Of a DNA stretch of 64,000 nt, positions 9,934 through 16,045 are shown piece after piece. Below the pieces are notes generated by a model. That model saw only the letters and a program-made list of their open reading frames with translations, was not told where the DNA came from and made no database searches. The position numbers and the translations under genes were made by a program. The DNA comes from a virus. Every line of letters starts with the position of its first letter. Positions within the stretch are counted from its first letter, which is position 1. The stretch lies in the IMG/VR virus record IMGVR_UViG_3300042387_001967; one strand, 5' to 3'.

Positions 9934-11142
9934 CTATTCTTCATTTTCCCTGACGTCTGCTGCGACTAGGCGAGCCTCGATCAGATCTGCCACGATATTG
10001 CTGGCGTCGCTCTCGCCCCGGTGCAGGAGATCCAGCGCCGTCTTCTGCAGGTCTTCCCGGTCCTTGAATCGCTGACTCACGAAGTATTCCATCGTGAACT
10101 CCTTCTCGGAGTCCGGTGAATCTTTGACTCTCGCCGGATGCGCCTGCGTGTTGGGCAGCGGGTAGCACCGTATGACCGCGCGCTGGGCGTCCAGCATCGA
10201 GTGCAGCCGGTTGATCGTCTGCGGAAACTGCCGGTCGAACTGCACGACCGCCACAGGATGCTGCGCGGCCACCGGCTCGATACGCAGCATGAGCGCGTCG
10301 AGGTCCTCGGCGGTGCGCACCTCCGCGTTGATGAACGGACGGGTGTGAATCGGAATCGTCTCCTTCAGGACAGCGCCCTCGGCGGTCAGCCGGATGATCG
10401 GCACAGACTTGCCGATCGGCTCGCCGGCGTTGCACATCTCGGTCGACCCCGGGTAACCGATCAGGCACTTGCCTCCGCCGGGACGGTCCAGCTGCTGGAA
10501 CCCCTGCAGGTGGATGTCGCCGAGCAGCCAGGCCTTGTTGTGCTTCGAGATTGGCAGCTCGGATACGTGCAGCGGGTCCGGTGTGTGAATCGGAAACTTC
10601 ACCACTCCGTCGATGAGTCCGTGGAACAGCACGACATCTGCCTGCCGCGCCCGCACGGTGATGTTCGCCAAGTCGCCGCGGAAGCTGGCTGCGGTGTGCG
10701 GCGTGAGCCCCACGATGCGGTAGCCACGGAAGACGACGCTGGAGTCGTCCAACGGCACGATGCCTGTCTCACCTTCAAATAGCGTCTCGGTGTCGTCGTC
10801 CGTCAGATTTAACGCGCGCCCCGGAAACAGCGTCTGCAGCCACGTGGGCGTGCTCCAGTCGTGGTTGCCGGTGATGGTGAATGCCACCTTCCCGGCGCTC
10901 CGGATCATCTGGTCGATGTGCATCAGCTGCCCGATTACCTGCGGGCTCGGCCGCGGGCGGTCGAAGATGTCGCCGGTGATGCAGATGATGTCCGCGTGCT
11001 TCAGCGCCGCCTCGACTGCATTACGGAAGCCGTCGTAGAAGTCCTGGCCCCGACGGGCAGCCGCGTATTGTGAGTCTCGCAGGTGGGTGTCACCGATAAG
11101 TGCGATCAGAAGATCGCTGTTTGGGGTCGCATTTTTTGCCAT
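9934..11142 (-). CDS. sbcD: Mre11/SbcD (T4 gp47-like) metallophosphoesterase nuclease
   Basis: Motifs GDTH, GDIFD, GNHD, FHG, GDIH; adjacent to Rad50. Confidence 0.92.
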   Translation of the reverse strand: MAKNATPNSDLLIALIGDTHLRDSQYAAARRGQDFYDGFRNAVEAALKHADIICITGDIFDRPRPSPQVIGQLMHIDQMIRSAGKVAFTITGNHDWSTPTWLQTLFPGRALNLTDDDTETLFEGETGIVPLDDSSVVFRGYRIVGLTPHTAASFRGDLANITVRARQADVVLFHGLIDGVVKFPIHTPDPLHVSELPISKHNKAWLLGDIHLQGFQQLDRPGGGKCLIGYPGSTEMCNAGEPIGKSVPIIRLTAEGAVLKETIPIHTRPFINAEVRTAEDLDALMLRIEPVAAQHPVAVVQFDRQFPQTINRLHSMLDAQRAVIRCYPLPNTQAHPARVKDSPDSEKEFTMEYFVSQRFKDREDLQKTALDLLHRGESDASNIVADLIEARLVAADVRENEE

Positions 11143-11873
11143 TTTTCAGTAGGGTAAATTTTGGAAGCCGCTTCAGCCAATTCTTCGCGAGCCCCCTTGA
11201 GGAGAGCGCGCGCCGCGCCTGCGAGTGCATCACAAATCGCCTGCCCGTCCACGACATTACGCGGGCGGCACATGGGCGTGATGCAAACGTGCTTGGCCAT
11301 GAACGACCAACGCATCCACAGATCACGCTCCTTCAGCCGGGACATCAGCGGGTCGCCATCCTCGTTGTAGAGGAACGCGTGGGCGAGACTGCTGCGATCG
11401 GTGTACCAGAGAATCGAGACCCGGTCAGGTCCCGTGAATTGGTTCAGGATTCCCTCGGTGCCGATTTTGTAAAGCTCCGCGGAGTCAGTCGTCTGCTCCT
11501 GAAGCTCCCGCCCGCGCTCTGTCAGGATGGAGTGCACGCCATCCAGCAGGGCGCTGAACTCCGATCGGCTGACCGTGGACCCATAGGTGCCAGCGACGTA
11601 GCAACCGCGCGACACCGGCGCCCTGACCTCGCCGATCAGATCGATACGCTCCCAGACGGCCGCGTAGCCGCCCCATCCCTCGGTGCAGCCGGAGCCGTCG
11701 GTGTAGAGGACGCAGTCGTGCTCGTAAGGATCCGGGGCGACATCTTCGAGCCACTCGAACACGTCGGCGTAGCGCTCCTTGATCAGCTCACCGTCGACGG
11801 TCAGGTTATCCCACCAGGACGTCTCTTTTCGCCACTTGTGTTTGTTCCAGGTGTCACGGTTGTGGTGAGTCAT
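11106..11873 (-). CDS. ribonuclease HI-like protein
   Basis: YTDGS...GGYAAV...GT..RSEFSALL...YTD...CDALA; all four acidic residues (D,E,D,D) present. Confidence 0.8.
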   Translation of the reverse strand: MTHHNRDTWNKHKWRKETSWWDNLTVDGELIKERYADVFEWLEDVAPDPYEHDCVLYTDGSGCTEGWGGYAAVWERIDLIGEVRAPVSRGCYVAGTYGSTVSRSEFSALLDGVHSILTERGRELQEQTTDSAELYKIGTEGILNQFTGPDRVSILWYTDRSSLAHAFLYNEDGDPLMSRLKERDLWMRWSFMAKHVCITPMCRPRNVVDGQAICDALAGAARALLKGAREELAEAASKIYPTEKWQKMRPQTAIF

Positions 11874-12495
11874 CGTCGTCCGCTTCTGGAGTCCTCACGT
11901 TTCCGGCCGTCTCCTTTTCGTGCTGCTGCGCCGCGTCCAGAACGCTGCCGTTCGCGTCCTCTCCTTGTGGTAATTTCGGCACGGCGGGTGCGGTGGTCTC
12001 GACCGCCGTGATCAGGCGCCGGCTGGCAATTCGCTTCAGAGAGCCGACGTTCTGATGTTCCGCTTCTTCCATGAACGCAGCGATGAGAGGGCCGGCCATC
12101 TTGTCCGCCACCTCCTGCTGAATCTGCGCTTGAGCATGCGGTCGCATCTTGTCGCTCAGCATACCGGGCATGGATGATGTGCCAGTGACCTGCGTGAACG
12201 GCTGGTCGGCCCCGCGCACAATGCGGATGTCCCAGTAGATGCGGATGTCGCTGTCGTTGACCCCGACGACGCCCGAGTGGAAATCGATCAGCGGACGTTC
12301 GCGGTCCAGCAGCCTGGCGTTGAGTTCGTTGGCCTCCTGGATGGCCTTGACCGCGCTCTGCAGTGCGGCCAAGACATCGACGGACGGCGCGTCAGGCGTT
12401 GAATTTCGCCCGGATTTCTTCTGCTTCGCTTTCGACTGGTTCGGTGGGTGGTGATTGCTCATTTTGAATATCGCGTAGTTTCTCGCCTTGCTCAC
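11854..12495 (-). CDS. hypothetical protein
   Basis: 213 aa ORF overlapping the start of the RNase H-like gene; start may be MSNHHP at 12462. Confidence 0.65.
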   Translation of the reverse strand: MSKARNYAIFKMSNHHPPNQSKAKQKKSGRNSTPDAPSVDVLAALQSAVKAIQEANELNARLLDRERPLIDFHSGVVGVNDSDIRIYWDIRIVRGADQPFTQVTGTSSMPGMLSDKMRPHAQAQIQQEVADKMAGPLIAAFMEEAEHQNVGSLKRIASRRLITAVETTAPAVPKLPQGEDANGSVLDAAQQHEKETAGNVRTPEADDDDSPQP

Positions 12496-12584
12496 GCGTC
12501 CAGATCAAATAGAGTGACGTGCGTGCTTTTCCGAACCTGTCCGCACGTTCGTTTTCCAACAACACCGTCGATTTTGATTGAGCC

Positions 12585-13019
12585 ATGTTAGCGCAAGGTG
12601 AATTTATTTATGATTTGATGAACGCCTTGAGGAGAGACCCTCAGCGGGCGGCAAAGGTGTCCGCCGCTCTGCAGCGCATGGACACGGTAACGGCGGCCGT
12701 GGCGGATGGCAAGGCCACACGCAGCGACATCGCCAAGATCGAGGCTGAGATCGTCCCGCTGTGCGGTTTCAACTTCGGCCTTCTCATTCCTCGATTCTTC
12801 CCGCGTTACCCATTCGAGAAGCCGCTCGACCTGAGCGCGCGCCCGTTCATGTATGCCATGACCGCGCTGGCGCCGGGCAGCGTCGTCACCCTAAAGGCTG
12901 GACGTCAGGTCGGGAAATGCGCCGACGGCGACACCACGGTCGTCACCGACCGCGGCGTCGCCACGTTGCACGACATCTTCGCGGAGGGGATCCCAGTTCA
13001 GGCCAGCATCGTGCGATAG
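12585..13019 (+). CDS. terL: terminase large subunit N-fragment plus 33-aa N-intein
   Basis: Ends ...LKAGRQVGK|CADGDTTVVTDRGVATLHDIF...; Walker A cut after Lys, followed by intein block A (C1 at 12918). Confidence 0.88.
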   Translation: MLAQGEFIYDLMNALRRDPQRAAKVSAALQRMDTVTAAVADGKATRSDIAKIEAEIVPLCGFNFGLLIPRFFPRYPFEKPLDLSARPFMYAMTALAPGSVVTLKAGRQVGKCADGDTTVVTDRGVATLHDIFAEGIPVQASIVR

Positions 13020-13960
13020 CTGCGAATGGCTTCTGCTCCGTGGATCTCGACGTATGACGGGTCGAACACTTCCGCCTCCGCAGGCGTGTAGATCAGCCCG
13101 TCCTTCAGCTTGTCGATCAGGTGCTGCGAGAACCGGTAGCGGACGCCGGGCGAAGCGAGCATCCACTTCGACTGCAGCGTGAGGATCATCTCGCCGGACA
13201 TCCCGGCTGCGAATCCGCAATCCCGCAGCAGATCGGTGATGTAGTTTTCCCGGATGCGCGCGAAACGATCCGCCAGCGTCTCGAAGTGGTGTCTGGCGCT
13301 CAGCGGCCAGCTTTTCTTCAGCCACTTGTGGCGCTCGAGGTAGATGTCCTGCATGCTCGGGGACAGGGCGCTCACGTCGGCGTAGAGGCAGGACACTCCG
13401 CAGGTCCACATCTTGTGCTCGCCGACGTAGAACTGATCAAGGTCCGCCTTGCCCGATTCCATGATCATGCGGCGGCAGAGCATGCCGAAGTTGGAATGAT
13501 CCGCGGCGCTGGCTCCGGCGTGATCCTCCGCGCACGCCAGCAGCGACAGCTGCGGTTGACGCAGCGCGGTCCGCATCTGCTGCAGCAGGATGCTACGGTC
13601 AATCTGCAGCGCCGTTGCGTCCGGGCCCGTATATGGGTATTCCGGCTTCGGCAACTTCTTGCTCAGCTTTCCGGCTGCGTCATACATCTCGACGATCCGC
13701 TCGTCGCGACGCAGGAAGAACGCATCGCTCTCGTCTTTCCTCGCTGCCTTGCGCATCCATATTTCGGCGTCTTCGACGTCGATTCGGTAGATGGTGATGT
13801 CCGGCCTGCCCGGGTCGTTGCTGGCGGCCTGGACGCTGACGAGTCCTGCGAGGAACGGGGATGGACGCGGAGTCCATTGCTGCTTTTTTGGTAGTTTCTG
13901 AGTGGTGTTCAAATGGTTGAGTTGTGGACGACCATACAGCGTGGAGACGGCGGACGGCAA
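12998..13960 (-). CDS. orphan gene between the two terminase fragments
   Basis: 320 aa ORF with coding-like codon bias; overlaps the N-fragment stop convergently by 22 bp; start uncertain. Confidence 0.7.
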   Translation of the reverse strand: MPSAVSTLYGRPQLNHLNTTQKLPKKQQWTPRPSPFLAGLVSVQAASNDPGRPDITIYRIDVEDAEIWMRKAARKDESDAFFLRRDERIVEMYDAAGKLSKKLPKPEYPYTGPDATALQIDRSILLQQMRTALRQPQLSLLACAEDHAGASAADHSNFGMLCRRMIMESGKADLDQFYVGEHKMWTCGVSCLYADVSALSPSMQDIYLERHKWLKKSWPLSARHHFETLADRFARIRENYITDLLRDCGFAAGMSGEMILTLQSKWMLASPGVRYRFSQHLIDKLKDGLIYTPAEAEVFDPSYVEIHGAEAIRSYRTMLA

Positions 13961-14098
13961 GTCCGTGGATGTCTTCGCTGCCCCTTCGTCCGTAATGGGG
14001 AATAATGCGCGCGGTCGTTCCGTGCCGACCGTGTTCCTGCGCCTGTTCAGGTGAGCCCCCGCCGCTTGCGCTTGCGGGGATCTTCATCTTGACGCTAT

Positions 14099-16045
14099 TT
14101 GCGATGCGCCTACGATGCCAAACATCGCGTGCTGTTGGAAACCGAAATAGCTGAGGAAAGATCCGTGGAGCATCTCGACTTAAAAGTCGCTGCTCCGGGT
14201 GGTGCTTTTGTGCGTGTCACCCACGTCTGCCGAACCGTGCCGATGCCGGTGTGGCGAATCCTGACGCGAGATTTCGCGTTGGAGTGCGCCGGCAAGCATT
14301 TGGTAAGGAGACTCAGTGGATATGGGCAGGTGGATCAATGCCTGCCCGGTGACTTCATACTGACTCAAGACGGCTGGCAGCCCGTCACTGCATGTGCGCC
14401 GGTGGGTGAGGAACGCGAGATGTTCGACCTCCGTGTGGAGGGCGAGGATCACGCATACTTCACCTCCGGGATTGCCAGCCACAATTCCACGGGCCTCGGG
14501 GCCGCTGAGCTGTTCAAGCTCAGCGTGGTTCCAAATTACCGCTCCATCTACCTGACCCCGCTGAGGGAGCAGAGCAAGACGATGGCGGACAAGCTGCTCA
14601 ACATGCAGCGCGGCTCGATCTGTCCCCCGGCGTATTTCACCTCCCGCGGCTACCGCAACAACATGTATTACAAGGAGTCGCCACAGGGAGGCTCGCTGAA
14701 GCTGATGCACATCCTGACGGACCCGACAAAGATCCGCGGCGAAAGCGTGCCCACCATCATCATCGATGAGAGCCAGGATTTCGACGCCGAGCATCTGCCG
14801 GAAATCGAGCAGGTTCAAAAAGCCTTTCCCGACGATCGTCTGACCGTGTTCGCCGGCACGTCGAAGCATCTCGATACCTGCCTGGAGGCTCAATACAACC
14901 TGGGCAGTCGCGGCGTGTGGCACGTGTATTGTCCGTGTCCGAAGAAGTTCCACTCGCTTGGCGACGCAGAGCTCGTGCCGAAAATGATGGCCTCCGTGGA
15001 AGGCCTGCGCTGCCCGGACAACAAGCACATCAAGCTCAACCCCCTGATGGGGGAGTTCGTCCACGAAGACCGGTCTCGGCTGCGCGTCAACATGCCCAGC
15101 TTCCATCTGCCGCAGGTGATCGTGCCGGAGTATGCCCTCGGAAAGGGCTTCATGGACATCTGGAAGGACTACAAAAAGTATCCTCTCAAGAAGTTCCTGC
15201 AGGAGGTCTGGGGTATCGCAGTCGAGTCCGGGCTGACCGAACTCAACGAGGAAGATTTGAAGCGGTGCTGCACCACCAAGACGTTCGCGCAGACGCAGGA
15301 GGACTGCCTCGCCGGACGTTCGCGCTACATGTATCTGTTCTCCGGCGTGGACTGGGGCGGCTCGGACTGGGAGCCGGCGTATCGCAGCAAACTCTCCTAC
15401 ACGGTGCATACGATTTACGGGATGCGCGGCGACGGGAAGATGGACCTAGTCTACGCCTTCCGCTACTCCGGCATGAACTACCGCGAGATCGCACAGAACA
15501 TCGTCGAGCAGCACAACAAGTATAAGAGCTTCGCGATGGGCACCGACAACGGCGGCGGCGCTTACTACAACGCCTACATGCGGGACTGCGGACGCATCCG
15601 GACGGAATCGATCATTCACTTTCAGTATACCGACACCAAGCTGATGCTGGACCGCATCAAGCACCCGGAGGCGCACATCATGTCGCTGCACCGGTCGGAC
15701 TCCCTCTCGGCTCTGCTTGCCGACATCAAGGACCAGAACATCTCATGGCCACGCTGGGACGAGTCCAGCCCATTCGTGTTGGACTGCCTGAACATCCGGA
15801 GAAACATAGCCGAAGCGCCGTCCGGTCGCACCATCATGCGCTACATCAAGGCTGGGGCGCGGTCGGATGACTTCCTGCAGTCTACCAACTACGCGTGCAT
15901 GATGAAGCGCATCGTGCGCAACGAATCGCTCATCCCGAACAAGCAGATCATGGACGAGCTGCGGACGTTGTTCGGTCTGTCCATCCCGACCGATCTGGCG
16001 TCGCGGATGGGCGACATGTTCGAGGGCGGCTACGTGGGCGGGTAA
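14099..16045 (+). CDS. terL: C-intein (about 129 aa) plus terminase large subunit C-fragment
   Basis: Intein block B LECAGKH, block F/G MFDLRVEG...GIASHN|S (Asn at 14483-14485); then STG..., Walker B IIIDESQD, nuclease motifs GVDWGG and DDFLQS. Confidence 0.9.
   Translation: MRCAYDAKHRVLLETEIAEERSVEHLDLKVAAPGGAFVRVTHVCRTVPMPVWRILTRDFALECAGKHLVRRLSGYGQVDQCLPGDFILTQDGWQPVTACAPVGEEREMFDLRVEGEDHAYFTSGIASHNSTGLGAAELFKLSVVPNYRSIYLTPLREQSKTMADKLLNMQRGSICPPAYFTSRGYRNNMYYKESPQGGSLKLMHILTDPTKIRGESVPTIIIDESQDFDAEHLPEIEQVQKAFPDDRLTVFAGTSKHLDTCLEAQYNLGSRGVWHVYCPCPKKFHSLGDAELVPKMMASVEGLRCPDNKHIKLNPLMGEFVHEDRSRLRVNMPSFHLPQVIVPEYALGKGFMDIWKDYKKYPLKKFLQEVWGIAVESGLTELNEEDLKRCCTTKTFAQTQEDCLAGRSRYMYLFSGVDWGGSDWEPAYRSKLSYTVHTIYGMRGDGKMDLVYAFRYSGMNYREIAQNIVEQHNKYKSFAMGTDNGGGAYYNAYMRDCGRIRTESIIHFQYTDTKLMLDRIKHPEAHIMSLHRSDSLSALLADIKDQNISWPRWDESSPFVLDCLNIRRNIAEAPSGRTIMRYIKAGARSDDFLQSTNYACMMKRIVRNESLIPNKQIMDELRTLFGLSIPTDLASRMGDMFEGGYVGG

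Follow-up and report, generated by a model that had tools for sequence, protein, structure and literature searches.

How can a phage whose only gene for the large terminase subunit (TerL) lies in two pieces still make an intact packaging ATPase? This question is raised by positions 12,585 to 16,045 of IMG/VR virus record IMGVR_UViG_3300042387_001967, analysed here as a stretch of 64,000 nucleotides (hereafter the window) from an uncultured metagenomic lake phage. In a first-pass annotation the locus had been read as a TerL gene fractured by an atypically split intein whose N-terminal half (IntN) has 33 amino acids (aa) and whose C-terminal half (IntC) has about 129 aa. Our analysis favors split-intein protein trans-splicing of TerL as the best explanation, with a probability of roughly 85%, and it draws attention to a 320-aa gene on the minus strand of the gap, called gene X below, which is not mentioned in the first-pass annotation.

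The terminase gene and its intein

The downstream open reading frame (ORF; 14099..16045, plus strand, 648 aa) matches PHROG 675, 'terminase large subunit' (E = 1.6e-11), and finds by tblastn annotated TerL genes in 69 phage records, the best match being Salmonella phage Arash (E = 4e-16, with 22.9% identity across 75% of the query); the TerL identity assigned at first reading is thereby supported. The match to Pfam GpA_ATPase is weak (E = 0.0016) and stays under the cut-off. The window is part of a virus record of 184,016 bp that is complete and carries direct terminal repeats, and an intein-free TerL homologue, P0113, aligns to this complete genome in two places only, namely the N-piece (P0113 residues 2–106) and the C-piece (residues 98–605). 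Because nothing but these two pieces is matched, the split gene is taken to be the only TerL of the phage, and it is by all appearances an essential and unique gene in this genome.

The upstream ORF (12585..13019, plus strand, 144 aa) ends in ...TLKAGRQVGK/CADGDTTVVTDRGVATLHDIFAEGIPVQASIVR followed by a stop codon, with 33 residues from Cys1 to the stop (here and below, a slash marks a junction or break). The downstream ORF, in another frame, reads ...FALECAGKHLV...MFDLRVEGEDHAYFTSGIASHN/STGLGAAELF..., and its segment from block F to the junction is MFDLRV...DHAYFTSGIASHN/ST. Joining the exteins gives GRQVGK-ST, an intact Walker A motif. At the same place, P0113 reads RAGRQVGK/STTLIARQ, and P0111, a homologue with a contiguous intein, reads RAGRQVGK/CAAG...ILSHN/STTLVARQ, the window pieces aligning to either side of the insert. 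We therefore confirm the junction motifs first noted in the two ORFs (GRQVGK/CADGDTTVV and GIASHN/STGLG), the restoration of Walker A, and the location of an intein in the Walker A loop with a short N-half and with its halves in separate genes about 1.1 kb apart.

Cys1 (GRQVGK/CADGDTTV) is invariant in 17 of 17 aligned N-pieces, and the block B His57, the block F Asp100 and the string Ser117-His118-Asn119-Ser120-Thr121 are invariant in 20 of 20 C-pieces. Of the 98 proteins that start with IntC among the homologue clusters listed, 96 have Ser and 2 have Thr at the +1 position. The window IntC alone is similar to the solved VidaL intein (E = 0.0047), and a family profile built from 30 IntC sequences, the first being that of the window, retrieves 24 distinct solved sequences at E ≤ 0.01. 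Their names mark 20 of the 24 as inteins, as a Hint-domain protein (MJ0781) or as known hosts of inteins (replicative helicase, cell division control protein, DNA polymerase); the remaining four, named NAD(P)(+)--arginine ADP-ribosyltransferase, match the last 50 profile positions only. The profile scores are 1.3e-19 for VidaL, 1.3e-11 for gp41-1, 2e-11 for Spl DnaX and 2e-7 for CatC. As far as can be read from sequence, the element has the marks of a class-1 intein: an N-terminal nucleophile, the block B His, the block F Asp, the His-Asn/+1 junction, similarity to inteins and the restoration of the host motif.

On this basis, we propose the following model. A class-1 mini-intein would lie between the Walker A Lys and Ser (GRQVGK/ST), its coding sequence being broken after the first helix in what would be a 'fractured gene', and two proteins would be produced, the N-extein (111 aa) with the short IntN and IntC (107–119 aa) with the C-extein (519 aa). 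IntN would dock into the nearly complete IntC to give the HINT fold; Cys1 would form a thioester, Ser+1 would attack it, the terminal Asn would cyclise, and ligation of the exteins would yield a TerL of about 630 aa with an intact P-loop. The trans-splicing assembly put forward at first reading is thus the best explanation by anatomy, conservation and catalytic residues, the splicing step itself being what we infer from them.

The same residues bear on a different possibility, in which the intein halves would assemble the pieces into a two-chain motor without splicing. There is a precedent in the fragmented NrdA, whose parts are described as held by element-derived interaction domains (PMC3045599), and a block B that lacks its usual Thr would fit such a role. 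However, the break falls inside the P-loop, between the Lys and the Ser/Thr, so that unligated pieces would leave about 140 intein residues in the ATP-binding loop, and the invariance of Cys1, the block B His, the block F Asp, the His-Asn pair and Ser+1 would be unexpected under selection for binding only. We consider a non-covalent motor improbable.

The broken locus: layout, constraint and spread

The coordinates of the features are collected in Table 1. The region between the two TerL pieces (13020–14128) has stops in every plus-strand frame (13, 7 and 4), and gene X fills this gap of about 1.1 kb, overlapping the IntN ORF tail to tail by 22 nucleotides (nt).

Table 1. Features of the split TerL locus (positions in the window).
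Feature	Position	Strand	Description
TerL N-extein	12585..12917	+	111 aa; closes with GRQVGK, Walker A residues 1–6; from the ORF listing and alignment to P0113
IntN	12918..13019	+	Cys1 and block A (CADGDTTV), core of about 24 aa to ...IFAEG, then 9-aa tail IPVQASIVR and stop
Gene X	12998..13960	-	orphan protein of 320 aa; occupies the split site, antisense to TerL; candidate mobility gene
GC-rich hairpin	14057..14079	+	23 nt, conserved; within the divergent spacer that separates gene X from the IntC gene
Promoter-like element	14087..14116	+	conserved TCTTGACGC, then a sigma-70-like TTGACG-16-TACGAT match; candidate C-piece promoter
IntC	14129..14485	+	119 aa from GTG 14129; block B ECAGKH, block F MFDLRV..DHAYF, block G ASHN
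TerL C-extein	14486..16045	+	519 aa and stop; Ser+1-Thr completes Walker A; remaining ATPase and nuclease

The intein halves are probably shorter than first annotated. The figure of 33 aa for IntN is correct from Cys1 to the stop, but the conserved core has about 24 aa; the last nine residues, whose codons lie in the overlap with the 3' end of gene X, are different in each lineage, and for these reasons the working IntN probably comprises about 24 residues. The figure of about 129 aa for IntC counts from the first possible start, TTG 14099. A start of the form [MVL]L..E[IV].EE, equivalent to GTG 14129 and a 119-aa IntC, is found in 57 of the 98 IntC-first homologues among the clusters listed, whose median annotated length to the Asn is 119, and in several low-GC relatives the frame opens just 0–7 codons upstream of the equivalent start Met. 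The database protein P0023 (626 aa, 98% identical) starts at GTG 14165, which is preceded by GAGGA at 14153–14157 and would give a 107-aa IntC. We favor GTG 14129 with GTG 14165 as the alternative, and an IntC of 107–119 aa appears more likely than one of 129 aa.

The break is real, ancient and viable. Contigs from assemblies of other runs (lake metagenomes) cross 12805–14063 and 13601–14716 with zero differences and zero joints; at least half of the sampled words are present in 18 DNA runs, 7 of which are possibly the source. The locus itself has no match among 50,697 phage records (blastn). The same three-gene layout is present in relatives L007/L022 (TerL 77% identical), L024 and L016, and the split is kept in relatives from 77% down to about 30% identity. 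Of the 126 clusters of TerL homologues, 120 were listed and classified: 98 start with IntC, one has a contiguous intein, seven are intein-free, and 14 are later pieces or unclassified. We also classified 79 IMG/VR loci by a strict motif test, with split defined as an N-piece upstream on the same strand; 23 are split, 5 contiguous (inteins of 150–165 aa), 30 show the IntC junction only, and 21 are without a junction motif. An N-piece hidden Markov model finds further N-pieces among the 30 junction-only loci, two of them on the opposite strand. Closely related alleles occur in both states, L083 being contiguous and L078 split with the break at ...SxIE/TEK..., past the block A strands and the helix-like segment next to them. 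Compared with contiguous relatives, the break in the window follows block A and about 20 residues (...LHDIFAEG) and precedes the strand leading to block B.

Purifying selection acts on all parts of the locus, with ratios of nonsynonymous to synonymous substitution rates (dN/dS, window versus L022) of 0.16 in the N-extein (111 codons), 0.14 in the IntN core (24 codons), 0.22 in IntC (119 codons), 0.14 in the C-extein (519 codons) and 0.34 in gene X (291 codons).

These data leave little room for a decaying relic, a dead terminase or an assembly or sequencing artefact. Such an origin might be suspected for a 64-kb window of an uncultured metagenomic phage that cannot be checked by culture. The genome is, however, complete with terminal repeats and holds no other TerL, the layout recurs in independent assemblies and in distant relatives, and every part is under purifying selection; the artefact looked for was not found, as independent contigs bridge the gap. 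We regard a relic or artefact as very unlikely.

Removal of the interruption before or during translation, by a group I/II intron, ribosomal bypass or a frameshift, would give a contiguous precursor and splicing in cis. A search of Rfam with 12300–14600 returned chance-level miRNA matches only, and no joints were seen in DNA contigs or in contigs from RNA libraries. Moreover, the gap encodes a conserved antisense protein, carries the stops described above in all three plus-strand frames, and is followed in homologues by C-pieces whose own start comes within a few codons of a preceding in-frame stop. We give this route a very small chance, comparable to that of an artefact.

Several observations nevertheless weigh against trans-splicing and should be set beside the evidence for it. 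The Thr of block B (TxxH) is Ala in the window (ECAGKH), although the VidaL chain also has Ala at the aligned position. Pfam and NCBIfam recognise neither IntN nor IntC of the window, both being too diverged for them, and Pfam Intein_splicing, run over the whole genome, finds two other inteins and misses this one; the alignment to intein models is therefore positive for the IntC family profile and negative for Pfam and NCBIfam. The dN/dS values are rough because dS is 0.9–2.0, near saturation, and that of the IntN core comes from merely 24 codons. The RNA-library contigs consist of five short pieces of 151 nt, possibly DNA carry-over, and are uninformative on transcription, ends and strand.

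Some further arrangements were seen among the relatives. In L052 (3030–3545) and L053 (3029–3568), N-pieces on the minus strand are opposite to C-pieces at 4363 (plus strand), and the upstream 4.4 kb or so of L027, L045, L047, L049 and L059 yielded no N-piece. The TerL halves of some relatives may therefore be genomically uncoupled. In L091 (3648–3860 and 3838–5820) and L092 (4200–4412 and 4390–6372), the N-piece abuts or overlaps the IntC frame with no gap and no intervening gene; this layout could be an insert-free split or a frameshift-type break. Relatives also carry a second TerL intein at the Walker B region (...VVVDE/C...VHN/CQDFD), which is contiguous and very large in L019 (3–3305, minus strand). 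In others (proteins P0073, P0081, P0088, P0096, P0098, P0099 and P0105), the protein starts with a short IntC of this second intein, so that TerL is encoded in three pieces in some relatives.

Outside the window, the same genome has two further, apparently contiguous inteins (G000:C1:115361–116146, L102, and G000:C1:180866–181117, L103), one within a DEAD/DEAH-box helicase (882-aa ORF) and the other with a LAGLIDADG_3 domain in a frame of at least 672 aa. Upstream of TerL, the minus strand of the window encodes an SbcD-like metallophosphoesterase (9934–11142; Pfam Metallophos, E = 3.5e-9) and a 255-aa protein (11106–11873) with a weak RNase H-like match (E = 0.065).

Gene X in the split site

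What occupies the gap differs among the 23 split loci. In 17 of them, it holds an ORF of 377–480 aa on the plus strand, the strand of TerL. We examined 11 of these 17 ORFs and scanned nine of the 11 with Pfam; DUF559 or REase_MTES_1575 was found in six of the nine (E = 4.9e-5 to 4.8e-3), several showed weak C2H2 zinc fingers under the cut-off (E = 0.003–0.009), and the motif LDF...EF.G.Y.H is common to all 11. The same-strand gap ORFs belong, judged by these domains and this motif, to the Vsr-like type among homing endonucleases. Five loci, all of the window's clade, have gene X on the minus strand instead (as in the window, L022, L024 and L016), and the remaining one (L055) has a gap of 120 nt with no gene.

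Gene X is a real gene, as indicated by its homologues, its AF2 model and its constraint. It has 22 homologues with 33–98% identity, its family forms 60 clusters at 50% identity among 1.84 billion representatives, and it is present as a single copy in the genome. The model (pLDDT 83.7, pTM 0.79) consists of a small N-terminal beta-rich domain, a central beta-alpha-beta-beta-alpha domain, which bears the conserved motif L-L-A-C-A-E-D-H-A-G-A-S-A-A-D-H-S-N, and a helical C-terminal domain.

With its antisense orientation and tail-to-tail overlap, gene X is the less ordinary part of the locus, and it resembles nothing known. It has no match in Pfam, PHROGs, NCBIfam or PADLOC and no usable match in the ESM Atlas. 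Among 21 divergent members of the family, Pfam finds DUF3990 in one (E = 0.0077, under the cut-off) and nothing in the others. The best hit among sequence profiles of the PDB is an unrelated haemagglutinin component (E = 0.26), and Foldseek searches of the PDB and BFVD with the model return nothing at E ≤ 0.001. In a wide VIA-align search, the best match of the whole model is a flagellar doublet protein (Z = 6.2, 67 residues) and that of the central domain is designed ferredoxin folds (Z = 4.8), both within background. It should be noted that these absent matches do not establish a new fold, nor do they speak against gene X being a nuclease. A Vsr-like or EDxHD endonuclease was considered and is not supported: compared with the Vsr-like (DUF559/MTES_1575-type) gap ORFs, gene X lacks zinc fingers and the LDF...EF.G.Y.H motif, is antisense, and has no detectable relation to them (hhalign probability 0.9%).

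In a tree of 51 C-exteins, the four gene X-bearing rows form one clade (SH-aLRT 100), and Vsr-bearing, contiguous and intein-free rows are interleaved elsewhere; this is a quick maximum-likelihood tree with a midpoint root and SH-aLRT support only, the careful search being unfinished. In our model, gene X would have entered once, in the ancestor of a freshwater high-GC clade, and would have been retained since. A homologue that is 41–44% identical occurs outside any terminase in L017 (3414–4382) and L018 (2627–3577), which represent the same element; it is flanked by an unannotated ORF of 445 aa on one side and by Rha-family regulator genes in tandem on the other, and a radical-SAM-like gene is close by.

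The spacer between the start of gene X (13960) and the IntC gene contains the hairpin 14057–14079, of the form CCNCGCCGC-N4-GCTTGCGN'GG, with a fold energy of −23.3 kcal/mol (z = −2.07). In a comparison of six lineages, pairing holds in 95.8% of cells, both sides have changed in two of the eight pairs, and the covariation score was reached by 7 of 500 shuffles; the motif has one exact copy in the window. Directly 3' of it come the conserved TCTTGACGC and a sigma-70-like TTGACG-16-TACGAT match from a promoter scan, and TTGAC(G/A) directly after the hairpin is kept in the six lineages. The scans are close to expectation (terminators 3 versus 2.6 expected, promoters 1 versus 0.5) and are no evidence by themselves, a 9-mer of the 14087..14116 element is not enriched in the window, and a search for a motif shared by the upstream regions of the N-piece and C-piece gave just one 7-mer. 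Dassa et al. 2009 describe hairpins upstream of the endonuclease gene for 15 out of 16 cases, and also for a locus from which the endonuclease has been lost (PMC2677866). The hairpin and promoter-like element would be a control cassette that arrived with the inserted gene, possibly providing the C-piece with a terminator and a promoter. Separate transcription of the two TerL pieces, as first proposed, is plausible given that gene X runs antisense to them.

The reading that we favor for gene X, with far less certainty than that for TerL, is a mobility gene or the descendant of one, as suggested by the Vsr-like endonucleases that relatives hold in exactly that place. Position is the sole argument for a homing or mobility gene, and a cargo or domesticated gene fits about as well. 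A more specific proposal, which we offer as tentative and on balance doubtful, is that gene X founds a new intein-associated mobility family: a homing endonuclease that differs in fold and active site from all six families known so far and is centred on the conserved E-D-H...D-H-S-N loop of a small alpha/beta domain, which would insert antisense in the split site of terminase inteins and bring with it a hairpin and promoter cassette driving the downstream half of the host gene.

Several results count against a mobility function. The family, profile and fold searches found neither a nuclease signature nor a significant fold match. In L024 (3352–4269, minus strand) and L019 (3501–4283), the conserved E-D-H and D-H are replaced (e.g., ...SSESRPGCSAGNHAN...); these copies may be inactive, or the replaced residues may be non-catalytic. 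No allele free of gene X was seen inside its clade, so mobility is unsupported, and to have been kept vertically for so long under constraint is as fitting for a domesticated or cargo gene as for a homing gene.

The alternative is that gene X is such a cargo or domesticated gene, which took over the site after loss of the original endonuclease and could act, for example, as a late-gene regulator or in exclusion or anti-defence; this is compatible with trans-splicing of TerL, and we give it not quite even odds. Besides the empty nuclease searches, it is favored by gene X being antisense, present in every clade member seen and constrained (dN/dS 0.34–0.40), which is unusual for a fixed selfish endonuclease, and it is consistent with the homologue beside Rha-family genes and with the conserved hairpin between gene X and the C-piece. 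On the other hand, gene X lies in the exact site of the Vsr-like endonucleases, it evolves faster than its host gene (52% versus 79% identity), and the conserved acidic and His residues are gone from some copies, as happens when homing genes decay.

Relation to known split inteins and significance

The window intein belongs to a known and abundant family of split TerL inteins. The claim that it is a new atypical split intein does not hold: the same insertion and break point occurs in 98 of the 120 clusters listed and in 23 of the 79 IMG/VR loci, and a terminase of this kind from the 2009 survey of Dassa and co-workers, as well as GOS-TerL, AceL-TerL and Cat, were already known. We take that terminase locus to be the one later named GOS-TerL.

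The survey in question (Dassa, London, Stoddard, Schueler-Furman and Pietrokovski 2009; PMC2677866) reports 26 fractured loci, among them a terminase split 'at an unusual point' with a C-part of 122 residues. The present locus resembles it in having a gp17-like TerL broken in the intein at an N-proximal point, a long C-part with every splicing motif except N1, pieces that keep their order at the same locus and are separated by a gene, and a phage or metagenome setting. It also has the features of a fractured gene, the host gene being divided in two at a single locus without loss of order or orientation, with a split intein where it is broken. In the loci described there, all three coding regions are on one strand, and the intervening genes encode GIY-YIG or Vsr-like endonucleases after 27–51 non-coding bases, whereas here the intervening gene is antisense, overlaps the IntN gene tail to tail and is neither GIY-YIG nor Vsr-like. 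A gap gene is thus present, and the searches detected no endonuclease family or fold in it. The free-standing Vsr-like genes (DUF559/REase_MTES_1575) of 17 of the 23 split loci occupy exactly the same gap between IntN and IntC.

Among the characterised tools (PMC11766414; PMC13014065), GOS-TerL has 37 + 115 residues with Ser1/Cys+1, AceL-TerL 25 + 104 with Cys1/Cys+1, and the consensus Cat 30 + 104 with Cys1/Cys+1 (PMC11766414). As in these three, the window intein is encoded by two genes, with a short IntN (33 aa) and an IntC of more than 100 aa containing blocks B, F and G; it differs in having Cys1/Ser+1 and 33 + 107–119 residues, the comparison with GOS-TerL and AceL-TerL being by description, not by insertion codon. 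AceL-TerL and Cat are described as split after helix alpha1, the 'S2' position (PMC13014065). The break in the window appears to correspond to the S2 position that the same source gives for AceL-TerL and GOS-TerL, and our helix assignment rests on that description.

The IntC profile matches chain CatC of Cat-TerL (PDB 6DSL) over nearly its full length (positions 3–105 versus 15–111, E = 2e-7). Since this similarity is weaker than that to VidaL, the window intein is probably of a different allele or lineage from Cat. VidaL (PDB 6VGV/6VGW) is the closest solved sequence and is also atypically split with a short IntN; its split is described as following strand beta2, with an IntN of 16 aa (PMC13014065), and the break in the window appears to come one helix later. 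TerLs of Ackermannviridae (Serratia phage 2050H1, Vibrio phage VAP7) have a homologous mini-intein at the same insertion point (RQSGK/C...SHN/TT), and unlike the window intein it is unbroken, in one gene of 735–756 aa with no intervening gene. The Ackermannviridae intein segment scores E = 2.2e-8 and 34.5 bits with Pfam Intein_splicing (cut-off 35.8).

Split inteins with a short IntN are in demand in protein engineering, where they serve semisynthesis and labelling. The lineage offers many natural short-IntN variants with Cys1/Ser+1, unlike the Cys/Cys and Ser/Cys TerL inteins characterised so far, and these may suit labelling. Gene X is the open point of highest value at the locus: if it cuts DNA, it would provide a new endonuclease scaffold, and if it does not, it would show that an unrelated gene can come to occupy the break of a split intein.

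Taken together, our results suggest that in a large clade of phages from lakes and the sea the essential packaging ATPase is obtained only once two proteins have been stitched together, and that the split state of TerL is old and stable and not a transient accident of a selfish element.

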